DNA of 13,572 bases from the IMG/VR virus record IMGVR_UViG_2671181050_000011, one strand, 5' to 3'. Source of the stretch: a virus (lineage: Duplodnaviria > Heunggongvirae > Uroviricota > Caudoviricetes). The notes under the pieces are model-generated. The model was given only the letters and a program-made list of their open reading frames with translations, did no database searches and was not told the DNA's origin. This document shows, one piece after another, positions 1 through 13,572 of this stretch. How positions within the stretch are numbered: the stretch's first letter is position 1; every line of letters starts with the position of its first letter. The position numbers were made by a program, and so were the translations under genes.

Positions 1-102
1 AGGCGGAATATATGCGTCACCTTCACCAATAAATTCATTAGTTCCGGCCAGCAGATTATAAATTTTTATGGTCCGTGGTTGTTCACTCATTCTGAATGCC
101 AT
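1..102 (-). CDS. tfa: tail fibre assembly protein Tfa, 5' end only (first 34 codons; CDS continues beyond the window start)
   Basis: Reverse-complement translation from ATG at 102..100 gives [34 protein letters not shown], which matches the N-terminus of lambdoid Tfa proteins as I recall them. The ATG overlaps the stop of the upstream tail-fibre ORF (TAATG), the usual stf-tfa coupling. Confidence 0.8.
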
Positions 103-410
103 TACGCAAGCCTCACAATATAGTTAAATGCGATGTTTTTGACGGTGTTTTCCGCGTTACCAGCAGCGTTAACGGTGATGGTATGTCCATGTGAACCAAT
201 CGCAACGGAGTGCGTATGAGCACCAATACCGACAGTATGTGCGTGTGCACCTGCGCTTGCAGCAGTACCCGATACAGAGTGCGTATGAGCGCCTGCAGAA
301 GAAGTGTTAACACTGTATTTAGAATAATCAGGTGATCCACTTCCCGGAGCACCACTGGAACCACCTGAAACAAATGTCATCGAATGGGTATGTGCACCGG
401 CTGTCCCCAT
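102..410 (-). pseudogene. stf: side tail fibre protein (Stf-like), C-terminal ~100 codons only; remnant joined out of frame to truncated J
   Basis: The minus-strand frame ends ...[22 protein letters not shown] and carries five His-x-His motifs (AHTHS x3, AHAHT, SHGHT), typical of the C-terminal domain of T4 gp37 / lambdoid side tail fibres. No tail-fibre N-terminus is present; upstream of about 405 the J-homologous frame takes over. Confidence 0.65.
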
Positions 411-2427
411 GCATTTACCGCCCGGACTGTCAGCCTGTAATTTCCCAGCGCCAGCTGCGTGAAGCGATATGTGGTTTCCGTCGTCCGGGCCGTGCTGACC
501 AACCGCTCACTGCCGTCGTCCGCTGCCACGGTCAGGCGAAGCATAAAGCTCACCCCCTTCACCACCTTCGGCGTGTCCCAGCGCGCCAGCACCTGGTATT
601 CCCCGCTGTCTGCGGTGACTTCTGCGGTCAGGTGCTGAACTGCTGGCGGCGTGACACCATTCACCGTGCCGCTCTGGTCACCGTCAAAGTGCGCCCCGTT
701 ATCCACGATGGCTTCTTTCTCCGGTACATGCTGCACGGCAGCTTCAGCCCCCACACGCTGTACTCGGCAACGCCGTCAGGAACCCGGCTCACTTTCACCT
801 TCACGCCGTCGGTGACGGACTGGACCTCCACGCTCACCGGATTACCCTGCCCGTCAACCAGGCTTATCAGCGTGGTGCCGGAGGATGGCAGCGTGATTTC
901 ACGGTCGAGCGTCAGTGTCCGCGTCTGGCTGTTCACCGCCAGCACGCGCCCGCCGATGCTGATCCCCGCATAGTCATCATCACAGATTTCAATGACATCA
1001 CCTGGTACATGGCGAAGCCCTTCGGCACCCACGCTGAAGTCCACGGTCTGCGTTTCCAGCAGTTCCGTTTTAATCAGCCACAGCCCGGCTCGGTGCGCCT
1101 GCCCCCGCCTGGTACAGCCAAAGGCATCCATCTTCGTGACGTTACGACCGTAACGGGCAATGGCCTGCGTGTCCTCCACAAGCTCTGTCGCCGTCTCCCA
1201 GCCGTTATCCGGGTCAATCCAGTTCACCTCAACGGCATTATGGCGGTCCTTCAGGGCGCTGAAGCTGTAGCGGAACGGCGCGCCATCATCCGGCATCACC
1301 ACATTACTGCGGTTATAGGTCCACACCTTATCTGATGGTCGGTCCTGCACGAACGTCAGCGTCTGCCCGTTCCATACCGGCATACAGCGCATCGCCGAGC
1401 AGAAATCACTGAGAACATCCCACGCCTTACGCTGTGTGGTCAGCCAGGCATTACAGGTGATGCGCGGCTCCGTGCCGCCAAAACCGTCTGGCACCGACTG
1501 GTCGCAACACTGGCCGATGACATACAGCGCCCATTTATCCACATCTGCCGCACCAAGACGTTTACCCATGCCGTAGCGCGGGTGGGTCAGCATATCCCAC
1601 AGACACCAGGCCATGTTGTTGCTGTATGCTGGCTTAAACGTTCCGTCCCAGATACCGCTGTATTGCCGCGTCTGCGGGTTATAGTTCGACGGCACCTGCA
1701 GAATACGCCCGCGAAGATGATAATTACGGCTCACCTGCTGGCTGCCGAACTGCTCCGAATCCACCTGTACGCCGACCAGTGCCGTGTTCGGGTAGCACTG
1801 TTTCACATCGATGATTTCGGTGTATGACGACCAGAGCGTTTTGTTCTGCAGCTGGTCTGTGGTGCTGTCCGGCGTCATCCTGCGCATCCGGATGTTGAAC
1901 GGGCGCGGCGGCAGATTATCCACCACTACCGAGGCCAGATACTGCGAGGTGGTTTTGCCCTTAATGGTGATGTCTTTTTCCGTCACCCAGCCACCGTTAC
2001 GTTGTATCTGAACCAGCAGGCGAACTTCCGACGGATTCCTGTCCCCCTTTGAGGTGGTTTCCACCAGTGCCTGCACACCGAAGGTAAAGCGCAGACGGTC
2101 GATGTTTGCAGACGTAATGGTGCGGGTGATCGGCGTGTCATATTTCACTTCCGTACCCAGCACCGTCTCGGAGCCGGAGGATTCAAACCCCTCCGGCGGT
2201 GTCTGCTCCTGCTCACCGGCACGGAACACCACCGTGACACCGGAGATGTTGGTATTCCCCTCAGTGTCCAGCACCGGCGTACTGTTCAGCAGCACGCTTT
2301 TTAATCCATCCACCGGACCTTCAACCGGCCCTTCGCTGATGGCATCGATCACACTCAGCAACTGCGTGGACTTCAGGTTGTCCTTCGCTTCGCGCGGGGT
2401 ATGCCCCTTACTGCTTCCTTTACCCAT
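377..2427 (-). pseudogene. J: tail tip / host specificity protein J, N-terminal ~690 of ~1130 codons, disrupted by an internal frameshifting deletion and truncated at a junction with stf
   Basis: ORF 2427..661 starts MGKGSSKGHTPREAKDNLKSTQLLSVIDAISEGP..., near-identical to the lambda gpJ N-terminus as recalled. J similarity then continues in a different frame (754..377: AVQHVPEKEAIVDNGAHFDG...RAVNAWGQ) and stops at about 401. ATG at 2427..2425; 60-nt gap after I as in lambda. Confidence 0.88.
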
Positions 2428-2487
2428 TCCTCACGCTCCATAAACGACAAAACCGCCCGGAGGCGGTTTCACATAAAACATTTTGCA

Positions 2488-3135
2488 TCAGCGACCAATC
2501 ACCACAACCTGACCACCGTCCCCTTCGTCTGCCGTGCTGATCTCCTGAGAAGCCACCCGCGACCCCACGCGCATTTCACCGTACAGAACAGGCAGAACAT
2601 TGCCCTGGGCAACCATGTTATCCAGTGAGGAGAAATAGGTGTTCTGCTTACCGTTATCCGTTGTCTGTGTACGGGGAGTTCTGGCTTTCGGTGCCAGCAT
2701 CTGCGCCACACCGCCAAGGATCATACTGGCCCCCGCAGCATACATGCCCGATAAAGCCGCAGCTCCCAGCCAGCCTGCAGGGTTCCACCACGCCACTGCA
2801 ATCAGCGCCGCACCCAGCACCGCCTGAAACACACCGCCACTTTTTGCTCCCGCAAGACGCGGAACGATGTGGATCACGGCACCATTTTTCAGCGGCTCAT
2901 TAAGACGGGCTGATAATTCGTTTTCGCCTGCATCACGCCCGGCAATGCGCACCTGATACCAGCCCTCATTCAGTTTCTGACGAAACGCCGGGAGCTGTGT
3001 GACCAGTGCCCGGATGGCTTCAGCCCCCGTTTTCACACGAAGGTCGATGCGGCGGCCAAATCGTTGCAAATCCCCGTAAAGGCAGATGCGTGCCATGCCC
3101 GGTGACGCCAGAGGGAGTGTGTGCGTCGCTGCCAT
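2488..3135 (-). CDS. I: tail assembly protein I
   Basis: 215-aa ORF MAATHTLPLASPGMARICLYGDLQRFGRRIDLRVKTGAEAIRAL...GDGGQVVVIGR, very similar to lambda gpI as recalled. ATG at 3135..3133. Its 5' end overlaps K by 103 nt, as in lambda. Confidence 0.9.
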   Translation of the reverse strand: MAATHTLPLASPGMARICLYGDLQRFGRRIDLRVKTGAEAIRALVTQLPAFRQKLNEGWYQVRIAGRDAGENELSARLNEPLKNGAVIHIVPRLAGAKSGGVFQAVLGAALIAVAWWNPAGWLGAAALSGMYAAGASMILGGVAQMLAPKARTPRTQTTDNGKQNTYFSSLDNMVAQGNVLPVLYGEMRVGSRVASQEISTADEGDGGQVVVIGR

Positions 3136-3776
3136 TTGTCGGTGTACCTCTCTCGTTTACTCAGTTGTTCAGGAATATGGTGCAGCAGCTCGCCGTCGCC
3201 ACAGTAAATGGCGGCATGATTCGGCACCGATGAACCAAAACAGCACAGCAGCACGTCGCCAGGCTGCGCCTCTGTCAGTGGGACACGGTAAAAACCCGTT
3301 GCCTCCATATTGTCAAGATAGAGATTCTGGCCGTGACGCCACCAGTCATCCCCGCGATGAAAATCCGGCATCTCAATTCCCGCCAGATGGTAAGCGTCCC
3401 GGAACAGCGTGTAACAGTCCGTCACCCCGTGCTCAAAGCGCCACCCGGTGAGATGCGGCACACAGAGGAATTTATGAATCGCCCCCCGGCAGACCAGCCA
3501 CCACGGCAAATCACTCTGCACCTGCAGCCGCCGGTCGGCCTCACTCAGCCAGGGCAGACCACCGGGGTGGCTGTGGACCAGCGCCACAATCTCTCCCTGC
3601 ATTTCTGCACTCAGCCAGTCCTCCGGCGACATCCGGAAATACTCCTCCGGCTCACCGGAGATATTCACGCAGGGAAAATATCTTTCTCCCTCCGGCGTTC
3701 TCACCACGAAGCCGCACGACTCTGCTGGCGCACATCGCCGGGCGTGCGCCAGAATCGCTGATTCTGTCTCTGTCAT
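3033..3776 (-). CDS. K: tail assembly protein K (JAB/MPN-type HSHP motif plus NlpC/P60-like C-terminal region)
   Basis: 247-aa ORF MTETESAILAHARRCAPAESCGFVV...ALVHSHPGG..., lambda gpK-like. ATG at 3776..3774, 5 nt after the L stop; the lambda L-K-I-J spacing is conserved. Confidence 0.9.
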   Translation of the reverse strand: MTETESAILAHARRCAPAESCGFVVRTPEGERYFPCVNISGEPEEYFRMSPEDWLSAEMQGEIVALVHSHPGGLPWLSEADRRLQVQSDLPWWLVCRGAIHKFLCVPHLTGWRFEHGVTDCYTLFRDAYHLAGIEMPDFHRGDDWWRHGQNLYLDNMEATGFYRVPLTEAQPGDVLLCCFGSSVPNHAAIYCGDGELLHHIPEQLSKRERYTDKWQRRTHSLWRHRAWHASAFTGICNDLAAASTFV

Positions 3777-3781
3777 GGGAT

Positions 3782-4480
3782 TTACTGCGAAAGTTTGTTA
3801 ATGGAAAGGAAGCCGCCAAAGTTGCCGACGTTATTGCGAAACTTACAGCCGCTCAGGCATTTGCTGCATTTATCCTTCGTGATATCGGACGTCGGCTGGT
3901 CATATTCATCCGCGACAGCCGGACCGTGATAACCGCACTCATCACCGCGATAGGTCCAGGTGCAGGTATTAGCCAGCATGATGCGCCCCGGAAAAACGGC
4001 ACCATCCGTTTCCGTCGGTGTGGAGAGCACAAAGGAGGCACTGACCGCGCTCAGTTCGCTGCACTGCTCGATGCGCCAGCGGCTGATCACCTCCTGCTCC
4101 GGATCGGCGTCACTGTTTCCGTTGACGAAGTTCACCGCATCCAGAAAACGGGCGTAAACCTTACGCCGGACCACCGTTCCGCCGACCAGACTCTGCAGAT
4201 CTTCCGCCATCCCGGTGACCATACCGTACAGGTTAGAAACCGTCAGCGTGGGGCGCGTACTGGTGCCTTTGCCATTCAGTTCAAAACCACTCCCCTGAAT
4301 GGGATACGGCTGATACTGTCGCCCCTGCCAGGTGACCGGCTCACCTTTTTCGTTCTGCTCATTACAGAAAAAATAACGTTCTCCACCAACCTCTGTCAGG
4401 TCGATTTCCCAGAGCACCACGCTGGCCGACTGCTCCGCACGGGTGCATTCATTCAGTGTTTCCTGCCGGATAACCAACAC
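3782..4480 (-). CDS. L: minor tail protein L (Cys-rich C-terminus), but native ATG start replaced by a deletion junction; frame now opens with GTG-TTG
   Basis: 232-codon ORF ...IRQETLNECTRAEQSASVVLWEIDLTEVGGERYFFCNEQ...GGFLSINKLSQ matches lambda gpL from codon 4 onward. The first codons read GTG TTG GTT where lambda has ATG CAG GAT, and no ribosome-binding site is evident upstream. Confidence 0.8.
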   Translation of the reverse strand: MLVIRQETLNECTRAEQSASVVLWEIDLTEVGGERYFFCNEQNEKGEPVTWQGRQYQPYPIQGSGFELNGKGTSTRPTLTVSNLYGMVTGMAEDLQSLVGGTVVRRKVYARFLDAVNFVNGNSDADPEQEVISRWRIEQCSELSAVSASFVLSTPTETDGAVFPGRIMLANTCTWTYRGDECGYHGPAVADEYDQPTSDITKDKCSKCLSGCKFRNNVGNFGGFLSINKLSQ

Positions 4481-4715
4481 GGGCAGACTTCACCACATTC
4501 ACCTCGCGGATGTAGTCGCTGCCCATCGCATTCATGATGGCCCGCTGAAAGGGCAGTGTTTCCCAGCGCCCTTCCTGGTATGCGGATTCTTTCGGGAGAT
4601 AGTAATTGGCATCCGCCCATTCAACGGCGGTCTGTGGCTCCGGCCTGAACAGTGAGCGAAGCCCGGCGCGGACAAAATGCCGCAGCCTGTTAACCTGACT
4701 GTTCGATATATTCAC
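4449..4715 (-). pseudogene. A: terminase large subunit A, N-terminal ~80 codons only, fused out of frame into the start of L
   Basis: GTG-initiated frame MNISNSQVNRLRHFVRAGLRSLFRPEPQTAVEWADANYYLPKESAYQEGRWETLPFQRAIMNAMGSDYIREVNVVKSARVGY matches the lambda gpA N-terminus as recalled, then diverges (PAGNTE*). It overlaps the Nu1 stop by 26 nt, as in lambda. Confidence 0.85.
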
Positions 4716-5235
4716 TCAGCAACCCCGGTATCAGTTCATCCAGCGCGGCTGCTTTGTTCATGGCTTTGATGATATCCCGTTTCAGGAAATCAACATGTCG
4801 GTTTTCCAGTTCCGGAAAACGCCGCTGCACCGACAGGGGGATCCCGTCGAGAATACTGGCAATTTCACCTGCGATCCGCGACAGCACGAAAGTACAGAAT
4901 GCGGTTTCCACCACTTCAGCGGAGTCTCTGGCATTTTTCAGCTCCTGTGCGTCGGCCTGCGCACGCGTAAGTCGATGGCGTTCGTACTCAATAGTCCCTG
5001 GCTGGAGATCTGTCTCGCTGGCCTGCCGCAGTTCTTCAACTTCCCGGCGCAGCTTTTCGTTCTCAATTTCAGCATCCCTTTCGGCATACCATTTTATGAC
5101 GGCGGCAGAATCATAAAGCACCTCATTACCCTTGCCACCGCCTCGCAGAACGGGCATTCCCTGTTCCTGCCAGTTCTGAATGGTACGGATACTCGCACCG
5201 AAAATGTCAGCCAGCTGCTTTTTGTTGACTTCCAT
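4690..5235 (-). CDS. nohA: terminase small subunit Nu1 (cosB-binding, winged-HTH N-terminus)
   Basis: 181-aa ORF MEVNKKQLADIFGASIRTIQNWQEQGMPVLRGGGKGNEVLYDSAAVIKWYAERD...LSEYIEQSG, essentially lambda Nu1 as recalled. ATG at 5235..5233, at the expected distance from the cos end. Confidence 0.92.
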   Translation of the reverse strand: MEVNKKQLADIFGASIRTIQNWQEQGMPVLRGGGKGNEVLYDSAAVIKWYAERDAEIENEKLRREVEELRQASETDLQPGTIEYERHRLTRAQADAQELKNARDSAEVVETAFCTFVLSRIAGEIASILDGIPLSVQRRFPELENRHVDFLKRDIIKAMNKAAALDELIPGLLSEYIEQSG

Positions 5236-5623: not shown

Positions 5624-5857
5624 ATGTCAACGAAGAACAGAACCCGCAGAACAACAACCCGCAACATCCGCTTTCCTAACCAAATGATTGAACAAATTAA
5701 CATCGCTCTTGAGCAAAAAGGGTCCGGGAATTTCTCAGCCTGGGTCATTGAAGCCTGCCGCCGGAGACTGTGCTCAGAAAAAAGAGTTTCTTCTGAAGCA
5801 AACAAAGAAAAGAGTGACATTACTGAATTGCTCAGAAAACAGGTCAGACCAGATTGA
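5624..5857 (+). CDS. ynfO: small basic protein with a possible ribbon-helix-helix-like N-terminal region (YnfO-like)
   Basis: 77-aa ORF MSTKNRTRRTTTRNIRFPNQMIEQINIALEQKGSGNFSAWVIEACRRRL..., ATG at 5624 with a weak GGGG Shine-Dalgarno 7 nt upstream. Position and orientation match K-12 Qin ynfO. The fold assignment is inference. Confidence 0.7.
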   Translation: MSTKNRTRRTTTRNIRFPNQMIEQINIALEQKGSGNFSAWVIEACRRRLCSEKRVSSEANKEKSDITELLRKQVRPD

Positions 5858-5914
5858 AGCAATTTAGATAATCGTGCAGACTACGCCCCCTCATATCACA
5901 TGGAAGGTTTATCT

Positions 5915-6325
5915 ATGGATCAGGTAGTCATTTTTAAACAAATATTTGATAAAGTTCGAAACGATTTAAACTATCAATGGTTTTATTCTGAGCTAAAACG
6001 TCACAATGTCTCACATTACATTTACTATTTAGCCACAGAGAATGTTCATATTGTATTAAAAAATGATAATACAGTGTTATTAAAGGGCCTAAAAAACATT
6101 GTGTCTGTCAAATTTTCAAAGGATAGGCATCTTATAGAAACGACCTCTAATAAGCTGAAATCCAGAGAGATCACATTTCAGGAATACAGAAGAAACCTTG
6201 CTAAAGCAGGAGTTTTTCGGTGGGTTACAAATATCCACGAACAAAAAAGATATTACTATACCTTTGATAATTCATTACTATTTACTGAAAGCATCCAGAA
6301 AACTACACAGATCTTACCACGCTAA
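5915..6325 (+). CDS. ydfO: uncharacterised prophage protein (YdfO-like, DUF1398 family as recalled)
   Basis: ORF 5900..6325; preferred start is the ATG at 5915 ([32 protein letters not shown]...), which has GGAAGG 7 nt upstream and gives 136 aa. AT-rich codon usage, unlike the tail genes. Confidence 0.75.
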
Positions 6326-6333
6326 ACCATAAC

Positions 6334-6362
6334 GTCCGGCTTCTCTCACTCCTGAGCCGGAC
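6334..6362. other. GC-rich inverted repeat (8-bp stem GTCCGGCT / AGCCGGAC, 13-nt loop) just after ydfO
   Basis: Perfect 8-bp inverted repeat seen directly. There is no clear U-tract, so its role (terminator, RNA stability element or protein site) is unresolved. Confidence 0.3.
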
Positions 6363-6476
6363 TGCATTGGTTTAATAAAAACCATCAACAATTGTGATTT
6401 AGATATTCGGAACCATTCAAATATAACAAAACCCCGTAAAAACGAGGTTTATGGATAAATTTTATTATTGAATACA

Positions 6477-6649
6477 TCAGATTAAATTAATCTTGACATC
6501 ATAGCTTTCAAGACCCGTCATTTTTTCCCGTGCGGTAAACTGAATACTGGTAACTTCTTTCCCGGTCTTTTTCTTAAGTTCAATAATTTTTTTGTTATAT
6601 ATTCAGAAATATCTGCTTCTGCTTTTGTTTTTAAGTTTTCAATATTCAT
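6477..6649 (-). pseudogene. gnsB: GnsB-like small protein gene interrupted by a 1-nt frameshift in an A7 homopolymer
   Basis: From ATG 6649 (AAGAGGA just upstream) the frame reads MNIENLKTKAEADISEYITKK, then shifts. The continuation IIELKKKTGKEVTSIQFTAREKMTGLESYDVKINLI* lies in the +1 frame after the A-run at 6587..6593. Both halves resemble GnsA/GnsB (MNIEELKKQAETEIADFIAQKIAELNKNTGKEVSEIRFTAREKMTGLESYDVKIKIM, from memory). Confidence 0.7.
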
Positions 6650-6820
6650 CATTTCCTCTTTTAGTCTGTTATGACTTTCCAGTTACACAGTAAGTCGATT
6701 ATATGGTGCAAACGTGTAAAAGATAAGATGAAACATCGCAATAATCAACATACGATAGTCTAAATTTTACACAAACAGACAAAGAGAATTTTCCTGAATT
6801 ATCAATGCAATAGCATCAAA

Positions 6821-7051
6821 TCAACTCAAGAGCCTTATTGCTGCTTCCAGAATTTCTTCTGAAGTAACATGTCGATCCGCGGCTACATAAATGACTTTAT
6901 GATCTCCGGTCAGAGATGGAAACCCTGCGGCCATTACAGTAAGGTGTGTTTTTTCGCCATTTGGATATTCACGCATGATGGTGTTAACTCCAGTCATCGC
7001 TGGCACTACCACTGCTGGTTCAGAGTTAAAAAAAACTATGATTTTTTTCAT
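6821..7051 (-). CDS. ynfN: small uncharacterised protein (YnfN-like by position)
   Basis: ORF 6821..7093; preferred start is ATG 7051 (MKKIIVFFNSEPAVVVPAMTGVNTIMREYPNGEKTH..., 76 aa). No convincing Shine-Dalgarno, so the start is uncertain. Position matches ynfN in K-12 Qin gene order. Confidence 0.55.
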   Translation of the reverse strand: MKKIIVFFNSEPAVVVPAMTGVNTIMREYPNGEKTHLTVMAAGFPSLTGDHKVIYVAADRHVTSEEILEAAIRLLS

Positions 7052-7095
7052 GATGTTACCGTAGTATGTGAGTATCCATCGAATAGACACCAAGC

Positions 7096-7117: not shown

Positions 7118-7322
7118 TCATTTTCACTTTTTTAAATCCAACGACAGACGGCTGGCATTTAAGTATTGTGAAATATTATCAAATGTAATCATCATTGATT
7201 TACAAAAGATACATTTTGCCCCGAAAGGATTCATGTCAGAAACATCAAAAGATGATGTTCTATACTGGGAACCATGACAACACGGGCATCTAAAGTGAAT
7301 ATGGTTTGTAATATTGTCTACC

Positions 7323-7535
7323 TCAAAGCGCCACTACATGAACAGCGGCAGGACCTTTAGGTCCGTTCTCAATACCAAATTCAACTTCCTGATTCTCAGT
7401 TAATGTTTTGAAATCGTTGCTCTGAATTGCTGAGAAATGGACAAACACATCTTTGCTGCCATCTTTCGGCGTGATGAAACCAAAACCTTTTTCAGGGTTA
7501 AACCATTTCACTAAACCAGTCATTTTGTTAGACAT
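7323..7535 (-). CDS. cspI: cold-shock protein, CspA family (CspI-like)
   Basis: 70-aa [73 protein letters not shown] with RNP1-like (KGFGFI) and RNP2-like (VFVHF) motifs. ATG at 7535 preceded by AAAGGTAATAATT, resembling the cspA translation initiation region. Confidence 0.9.
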
Positions 7536-7898
7536 AATTATTACCTTTTGAAGAAATTAGCCCTTGGGCAGAATGGTCCGAAAAAAAAATATCAGAGAGA
7601 AAAACCAACAAGGAAATCTCAAGAGGTACAAATAATAAAATTATAACAATGACTGCTTCAGATAAATTTGTAACAAACCAGAACACCATTAACGCATGAT
7701 TAACCACCCATAGCAAGGATTACTTTTGTAAAGAAAAACACAGCAATGAAAGAATAGCTTTATTTATTAATAAAACGTGTCATTCTGATTAAGACCTTTT
7801 ATCTTACCCTTAAGATTTCAGGAATTTTGGCTCATGGAAGAGTCCTTTTTATTTAAATTTTACATTCCGCGATGTAAATGTTCCGATTTAATATTACC

Positions 7899-9926: not shown

Positions 9927-10207
9927 GAGATTGTGGTGCTTTTTGTGGGAGTCATCCACTTACGCACTTTGTTTTGCCATGCCAGCAGTTAGCTTCTGCT
10001 GTAAAACTATTCATGCAGCAAACCTGCACTTCACCACAATGGTTAGCATACTTTTCCTGATTAAGATTTTGCCAAATATGCTAGCCATTGTTTCATGTAT
10101 TGGACCTCCTTACTTTTTATTAAAGAGATCCAATATTCACTACTCTGTCCGTATCTCTACTCAGGCATCAGCCTTCTTCGTTATCGTATACAGACGAGCG
10201 ATGAATT

Positions 10208-10423
10208 TTAATCAGTAATGATGACATTTGCTGCTGCAGGACCTTTAGCACCACTCTCTATAGAGAAGGTAACCTTTTGACCTTCAAATAAGGTTCGATA
10301 ATTATCATTCTGAATCGCAGAAAAATGCACAAACACATCTTTACTACCATCAACAGGAGAAATAAAGCCGAAACCTTTATCAGCGTTAAACCATTTTACT
10401 AAACCAGTCATTTTATTTGACAT
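10208..10423 (-). CDS. cspB: cold-shock protein, CspA family (CspB-like)
   Basis: 71-aa [77 protein letters not shown] at 10423 with AAGGA 7 nt upstream. Divergent from cspF, as in K-12 Qin. Confidence 0.9.
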
Positions 10424-10723
10424 TCTACATTCCTTAACTTGAGCCTTTCGGCATAAATGGTTTGCATAACAGAAACGACTTCGTACTTAATTGGAGAGAC
10501 TCAAAGAAGGAATAAGTGAATAACACCTGAAATGAGAACTGCTTTAGTAAACTACTTCGTATATCGTCTGTTCTTCAAACCGACGCAATCATTAACGCAT
10601 AGTTGAACATATGAAGCAATGTTTATTTTAGACATCCAGCCATCTTCAACCCCATCAAAAAACTATAGCTTTCTTCAGGAACGTGTGTATAGTGTGCCAA
10701 GTTATCAGTATTAAGGAATTTTT

Positions 10724-13453: not shown

Positions 13454-13572
13454 CGGTTTTCTCCGGTGGCACGGTGTTACTCAGCGGGAGTTCAGCCCAT
13501 AAGCGCTAACTTAAGGGTTGAACCATCTGAAGAATGCGACGCCTCGGTGCCTCGTTAAGACGATGCCTCGCG

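Follow-up and report, generated by a model that had tools for sequence, protein, structure and literature searches.

Does the short gene between ydfO and ynfN in this prophage still encode GnsB, or has the loss of a single base from a run of A residues broken it? If it is broken, is the break an inherited mutation, an error of sequencing or assembly, one position of a reversible switch, or a site at which slippage restores the protein? We examined these questions in the 13,572-nt stretch of DNA presented here, the whole of which we call the window. We find that gnsB is very probably a real frameshift pseudogene, fixed in one clade and produced by loss of one base from a tract of eight A residues (A8).

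The two reading frames of gnsB

The open reading frames of the window, compared with annotated genomes, identify it as an E. coli cryptic lambdoid prophage of the Qin type. Its upstream part carries the tail genes J' (truncated), I, K and L, the last of which is joined to what remains of the terminase large subunit. Between this part and gnsB lie nohA (4690..5235, minus strand), ynfO (5624..5857, plus strand) and ydfO (5900..6325, plus strand). On the other side of gnsB are ynfN (6822..7052) and then ynfR, ymcF (7124..7312) and cspI (7323..7535), with ynfN, ymcF and cspI all on the minus strand, and beyond cspI are rzpQ, rrrQ, ydfR, essQ, ynfU, cspB, cspF, quuQ/ydfT and ydfU. The fusion at L is an internal deletion (~4449..4715; 1..4480) that joins the first ~80 codons for the terminase large subunit to L, past which come K, I and the truncated J. 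Strain 1332KP, the only near-identical full-length match among complete genomes (99% coverage, 99.9% identity), has the same junction annotated; of the six complete-genome records with coverage of 80% or more, it is the one in which this junction was examined.

The gnsB pseudogene occupies 6477..6649 on the minus strand and is 173 nt long, against 174 nt (57 codons and a stop) for the intact gene. The T7 run on the plus strand at 6587..6593 is an A7 run on the coding strand of gnsB, evident in the sequence, in the codon listing and as a single-base gap in the alignment with 1332KP. Around the run, the coding strand reads ATA ACA AAA AAA TTA TTG, such that the seven A's are the third base of ACA (Thr19) followed by AAA AAA (Lys20 and Lys21). 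The frame that begins with the ATG at 6649 encodes the 21 N-terminal residues of GnsB, MNIENLKTKAEADISEYITKK (6587..6649), continues into 22 unrelated residues, LLNLRKRPGKKLPVFSLPHGKK, and ends at a premature TGA (6520..6518), with the out-of-frame tail and its stop spanning 6518..6586 in the translation and in the list of open reading frames. The C-terminal 36 codons of GnsB, IIELKKKTGKEVTSIQFTAREKMTGLESYDVKINLI, are stranded with their TGA (6477..6587) in the -1 frame relative to the start, and this frame runs to the stop that ends at 6477. The gene lacks a single uninterrupted reading frame of ~57 codons, since its frame breaks after codon 21 and meets TGA after codon 43. Counted from the gnsB ATG, the truncated product has 43 aa, and a start at the ATG one codon further upstream would make it 44 aa; the length of 42 codons given in the original prediction was thus off by one.

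Both parts of the divided gene match the Pfam family PF08178 (GnsAB_toxin), as does the protein obtained when the missing A is restored. The N-terminal part matches profile positions 1-32 (E 2.3e-13, 50.3 bits), the C-terminal part matches positions 22-54 (E 3e-21, 75.5 bits), and the restored 57-aa protein matches positions 1-54 (E 3.1e-35, 120.3 bits); all three exceed the gathering score of 27 bits. The original prediction of a GnsA/GnsB-like gene split by a single-base frameshift in an A7 run is borne out by the reading of both frames and by these matches, and the downstream frame, whose lack of GnsA/GnsB similarity had been named as grounds for refutation, gives a clear match. Likewise, one added A does restore a continuous gene: the protein is identical to WP_001019606.1, the gnsB product annotated in 1332KP, and the two genes are identical at 173 of 174 nucleotides, the exception being the missing A. 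The restored protein also aligns with the GnsA crystal structures 4XO1 and 4XO2 over 56 residues (E 5e-20), and the position of the gene between ydfO and ynfN/cspI matches that in 1332KP and in ER1709, which has a K-12-type Qin locus. Judged by sequence and position, then, the feature is the gnsB orthologue of a Qin-type prophage, and because its reading frame is broken after codon 21 we class it among the pseudogenes of the family and not among its functional members. Neither GnsB nor YnfN matches a family in NCBIfam, and YnfN thus has no antitoxin family match there.

Beyond gnsB, 27 nt downstream of its stop, a hairpin and the T-rich tail behind it (6429..6450, minus strand) resemble a terminator; the consensus scan found this one site where 0.2 would be expected from shuffled sequences. 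A simple scan for sigma-70-like promoters, which is only weakly informative, found none in 6330..6830.

This arrangement is best explained by an A8 tract at codons 19-22 that has become one A shorter, converting ACA AAA AAA ATT to ACA AAA AAA TTA, and slipped-strand mispairing during replication, which usually has this kind of outcome, would be the likely cause. Translation of the resulting allele would retain GnsB residues 1-21, add 22 unrelated basic residues and stop, and thus would omit the 36 conserved C-terminal residues, or about two thirds of the Pfam domain. GnsB function is expected to be lost from the 43-aa product, because the C-terminal segment that it would lack is the stronger of the two Pfam matches. 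The activity at stake is known from overexpression of gnsA or gnsB, which increases unsaturated fatty acids, suppresses fabA6(Ts) and also suppresses the cold sensitivity of a secG null mutant (Sugai et al. 2001, as cited in PMC10607373).

Inheritance of the A7 allele

The A7 run could be an under-called homopolymer in a strain that truly has A8, or it could be inherited. The closest complete genome, 1332KP, shares the rare junction between tail gene L and terminase but has gnsB with A8. Alignment of the window to 1332KP yields six transitions and two 1-nt indels, and both indels fall in 8-nt homopolymers: the gnsB run, with 8 in 1332KP and 7 here, and a run in the cspI leader (7581..7589), with 8 in 1332KP and 9 here. 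The four substitutions of the window that could be compared are found in 0 of 17 other loci. Although such a set of differences might suggest a noisy assembly or a mutator strain, we rejected this idea, since all of them proved to be shared lineage markers.

We identified sibling assemblies by exact look-ups of the variant proteins of the window and then aligned their contigs to the window. The ydfT variant (G39R, L47F) occurs in 107 index blocks of the public collection and the rrrQ I80T variant in 61. A sister group of two assemblies (GCA_903973615 and GCA_948144105; L020 and L021) shares 1489T, 11972A, 11996T and the A9 run in the cspI leader with the window, but has gnsB with A8, an intact 57-aa gene, and lacks 3443A, 8688G, 10695T and the IS junction. 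The clade of the window itself includes five independent records: GCA_036607565 (L022/L027), an ENA metagenome scaffold (L023), GCA_900450305 (L024/L028), GCA_037023175 (L025) and a MEGAHIT-style ENA k141 contig (L026). All five have every substitution of the window together with gnsB A7, and the clade contigs that extend to 13498/13499 have the IS186/IS421 junction. The contig names of two of the five suggest short-read metagenome assemblies. All of the members of the clade that we retrieved carry A7. From this nested pattern of markers we conclude that the frameshift is an inherited mutation of the branch that also bears the three SNPs and the IS insertion; A7 would have arisen on the branch that gained 3443A, 8688G, 10695T and the IS186/IS421 insertion at 13498/13499. 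The clade may owe A7 to a slippage event of its own or to recombination with a different prophage that carries A7. Recent pseudogenisation, one of the options originally raised, is thus the one that the data favor: A7 is common to at least five assemblies of the same lineage, and both the sister sub-lineage and 1332KP have A8.

One apparent relative among the complete genomes did not hold up. Strain KE55 was the sole match in complete genomes to a 71-mer spanning both ydfT SNPs, but it has only one SNP in common with the window, its prophage is built differently and its gnsB run is A8; its match is homoplasy, not kinship.

Several features of the lineage markers are of separate interest. The last 74 nt of the window (13499..13572) are the end of the IS4-family element IS421 (IS186-like), located just past a small open reading frame downstream of ydfU. 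This sequence is present in multiple copies in E. coli genomes (median, three places per genome), and in strain 300709 it adjoins the IS421 transposase gene. The insertion at this position is a clade marker, since it is absent from 1332KP and from the sister loci and present in L022, L025 and L026. All six lineage substitutions are transitions, and four of the five that are coding are non-synonymous (3443, 8688, 11972 and 11996, giving K R112W, RrrQ I80T, QuuQ L47F and G39R), which fits relaxed selection on a decaying prophage. The A9 run of the cspI 5' leader, which reads T9 on the coding strand of that gene, is A8 in most genomes and lies within a match to the Rfam cspA-thermoregulator (7296..7682, minus strand, 111.9 bits); within the clade, L025 and L026 have A8 at this run and the remaining members have A9. 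A second cspA-thermoregulator match (10192..10584, minus strand, 158.8 bits) covers cspB and its leader, as expected for Qin, which carries a cluster of cold-shock genes.

We also examined how often the A7 allele occurs across E. coli. Among 5426 complete RefSeq E. coli genomes, in which the locus is found in 2137 records, the exact A7 67-mer is present in 41 (1.9%), while about 98% of gnsB copies are in one frame with A8; this is the comparison of homopolymer length at other gnsB loci that had been proposed as a check. At least 22 of the 41 A7 records have no other indel over 1.78 kb that includes three other long runs, and therefore are not simply assemblies that render homopolymers poorly. 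The suspicion of poor assembly holds in part only, for four A7 assemblies (L005, L010, L011 and L013) with other shortened homopolymers nearby, and because some A7 calls sit beside other shortened runs, part of the 2% figure may be artefact. We had also taken the frameshift in ynfN of ER1709 as a sign of an error-prone assembly, which was wrong, as K-12 normally has A7 in ynfN.

Exact matches to the 43-aa peptide occur in at least 1000 contigs and in 2217 index blocks; several of them come from older draft assemblies, and one is on a SPAdes-style contig with the label cov 89. The same truncation is found on the N5D haplotype, the full-length form of which is common, in 224 contigs; therefore, the -1 event happened, or was transferred, at least twice. 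The products expected from a 9-A allele (23 or 24 aa) are each found in one contig, a count from which frequency cannot be inferred, as open reading frames so short are rarely called.

Taken together, these observations leave next to no probability that the window has an under-called A8. A read error would account for the placement of the only two indels relative to 1332KP in 8-nt homopolymers, and it is consistent with the additional shortened runs near the A7 tract in several public assemblies. However, the second of these indels, the A9 run of the cspI leader, and the six substitutions recur in other assemblies as markers of the lineage, five independent records have A7 itself on this marked haplotype, and at least 22 complete genomes have A7 while their neighbouring runs are all normal. 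Read error, which the original prediction had allowed for, is disfavoured by this recurrence, since independent assemblies, among them the MEGAHIT-style contig and the metagenome scaffold, repeat A7 together with the marker SNPs. More generally, a homopolymer frameshift can be separated from a read error in the absence of reads, by finding sibling assemblies through look-ups of lineage-specific proteins.

Tract variation and slippage

A real A7 allele might still be more than a dead gene, and we considered two ways in which it could be. In one, the A tract is a contingency locus, a reversible switch of a GnsB toxin or lipid modulator that is on with 8 A's and off with 7; a slippage-prone switch was among the options raised in the original prediction. 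In its favor, the same -1 change is found on at least two gnsB haplotypes and in different prophage architectures, and the neighbouring run in the cspI leader is present as both A9 and A8 within the clade, which indicates that such tracts are mutable on this timescale. The gnsB change is also about five times more common than the shortening of T8 to T7 in rzpQ (41/2137 versus 6/1503 records). However, the rzpQ run (0.4%) is only one of the 8-nt runs available for comparison. The cspI-leader run has changed from A8 to A9 in 75 of 2100 records (3.6%) and the ynfN run from A8 to A7 in 417 of 1477 records (28%), where the variant is the K-12 allele; the 1.9% observed for gnsB falls inside this background, although all four frequencies are confounded by clonal sampling. 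Moreover, some 98% of loci keep A8, and an 8-nt A tract is short compared to established phase-variable tracts. Within the clade we found no revertant, as all four distinct places retrieved (24 contigs) have A7. Similarly, we did not find both tract lengths among very close relatives at gnsB; the clade has A7 and the sister group A8, a distribution that, as far as these sequences go, fits a single change on one branch. With no revertant in the clade and control runs that vary from 0.4 to 28%, a dedicated switch is unsupported, and we give it very little credence.

The ynfN run that served in this comparison (7028..7035, minus strand) is A8 in the window and gives an intact YnfN of 76 aa. The K-12 strains have A7, which PGAP annotates as 'frameshifted' in ER1709; reference K-12 ynfN thus appears to be the frameshifted allele, since the A8 of the window yields the intact protein.

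The other way in which the allele could remain active is by recoding, such that relevant, if attenuated, expression is obtained through -1 ribosomal frameshifting or transcriptional slippage. The seven A's form an A_AAA_AAA slippery heptamer in the 0 frame, exactly at the junction of the two gnsB frames, and a -1 shift on the heptamer reads ATT ATT GAA and so on, which is exact wild-type GnsB. Basal -1 slippage of the ribosome, or slippage of RNA polymerase, would thus remake the wild-type protein from A7. The motif A_AA.A_AA.A, which IS elements use, is prone to frameshifting in E. coli (PMC4066793), and an AAA-AAA sequence in pDEST17 rescues 1-nt deletions (PMC1851650). However, the efficiency of the motif without stimulators is only tenths of a percent: in E. 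coli reporters it gave >0.10% -1 frameshifting over a background of 0.055%, and the largest ratio of motif to background without a stimulator was ~10 (PMC4066793). In a 111-nt stretch that surrounds the heptamer and extends downstream of it, no stimulatory RNA fold was found beyond what shuffled sequences give (z = +0.92); the minimum free energy is -11.5 kcal/mol compared to a shuffle mean of -14.2, and 165 of 200 shuffles equal or better it. Upstream, no SD-like stimulator is visible by eye. Furthermore, the two-frame arrangement is not conserved, but is a rare, derived state carried by a minority of copies. Full-length GnsB is possible because the A's form an in-frame heptamer, but only a trace is expected, about 0.1-1% without a stimulator if the published reporter data apply here. 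That recoding makes the allele a working gene in any relevant sense is something to which we assign hardly any weight.

A broader idea would combine these observations, namely that the recurrence of A8 to A7 in independent lineages represents a selected state, in which GnsB is attenuated, revertible and supplied by slippage. We consider this very unlikely, but if it were true, a leaky gnsB A7 would be a small natural case of attenuation of expression by a 'savior' slippery site. An inherited pseudogene is the reading that we prefer.

Annotation of the allele and known counterparts

The gnsB A7 allele is an ordinary one that public annotation already includes. In ER1709, RM10042 and OkiPb01711, PGAP labels it 'GnsA/GnsB family addiction module toxin, frameshifted', and both nr and UniRef name the 43-aa peptide 'protein GnsB' or 'GnsA/GnsB family protein'. 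In other genomes, PGAP gives the same A7 allele as a 126-nt CDS in the C-terminal frame, encoding 41 aa (WP_349812768.1); it is placed on the minus strand in L015 and L016 at 4921..5046, which corresponds to 6477..6602 of the window. This 41-aa form is found in 315 contigs. From the sequence, its start appears to be a non-canonical ATA, because ATA is the first codon after the upstream stop. PGAP is thus inconsistent on gnsB A7, which appears as a 'frameshifted' pseudogene in one set of genomes and as a 41-aa CDS in another. As gnsB is a dispensable gene of 57 codons in a decaying prophage, the matter has little weight beyond annotation hygiene.

The nearest counterpart is the gnsB gene of K-12 Qin (ydfY, b1550; PF08178). 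The restored product of the window is identical to WP_001019606.1, but the window copy is without one A of the A8 tract and has only residues 1-21 in frame. The neighbourhood in K-12 Qin is the same, with nohA, ynfO, ydfO, gnsB, ynfN, ynfR, ymcF, cspI, rzpQ and rrrQ, as well as ydfR, essQ, cspB, cspF, quuQ and ydfU; upstream, however, K-12 Qin has stfQ/tfaQ/pinQ, whereas the window has the lambda-like J', I, K and L and the terminase remnant. GnsA (yccL) of E. coli belongs to the same Pfam family but, unlike prophage gnsB, it is chromosomal and adjoins cspG/ymcE; ymcE-gnsA is listed as a type II pair in which GnsA is the toxin (PMC8484670).

With respect to the heptamer, the -1 sites of IS1, IS3-family elements and dnaX (A_AAA_AAA or A_AAA_AAG) likewise have an in-frame heptamer that joins two halves of a protein. 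The gnsB A7 site differs from these in that it is without a stimulatory hairpin or pseudoknot and its split is a rare derived allele. The closest likeness is to the gnsB pseudogenes annotated as 'frameshifted' and the 43-aa entries of nr and UniRef, which are exactly the same allele and peptide, with no difference in sequence; what distinguishes the copy in the window is that it resides on a lineage haplotype marked by three SNPs and the IS186/IS421 insertion.
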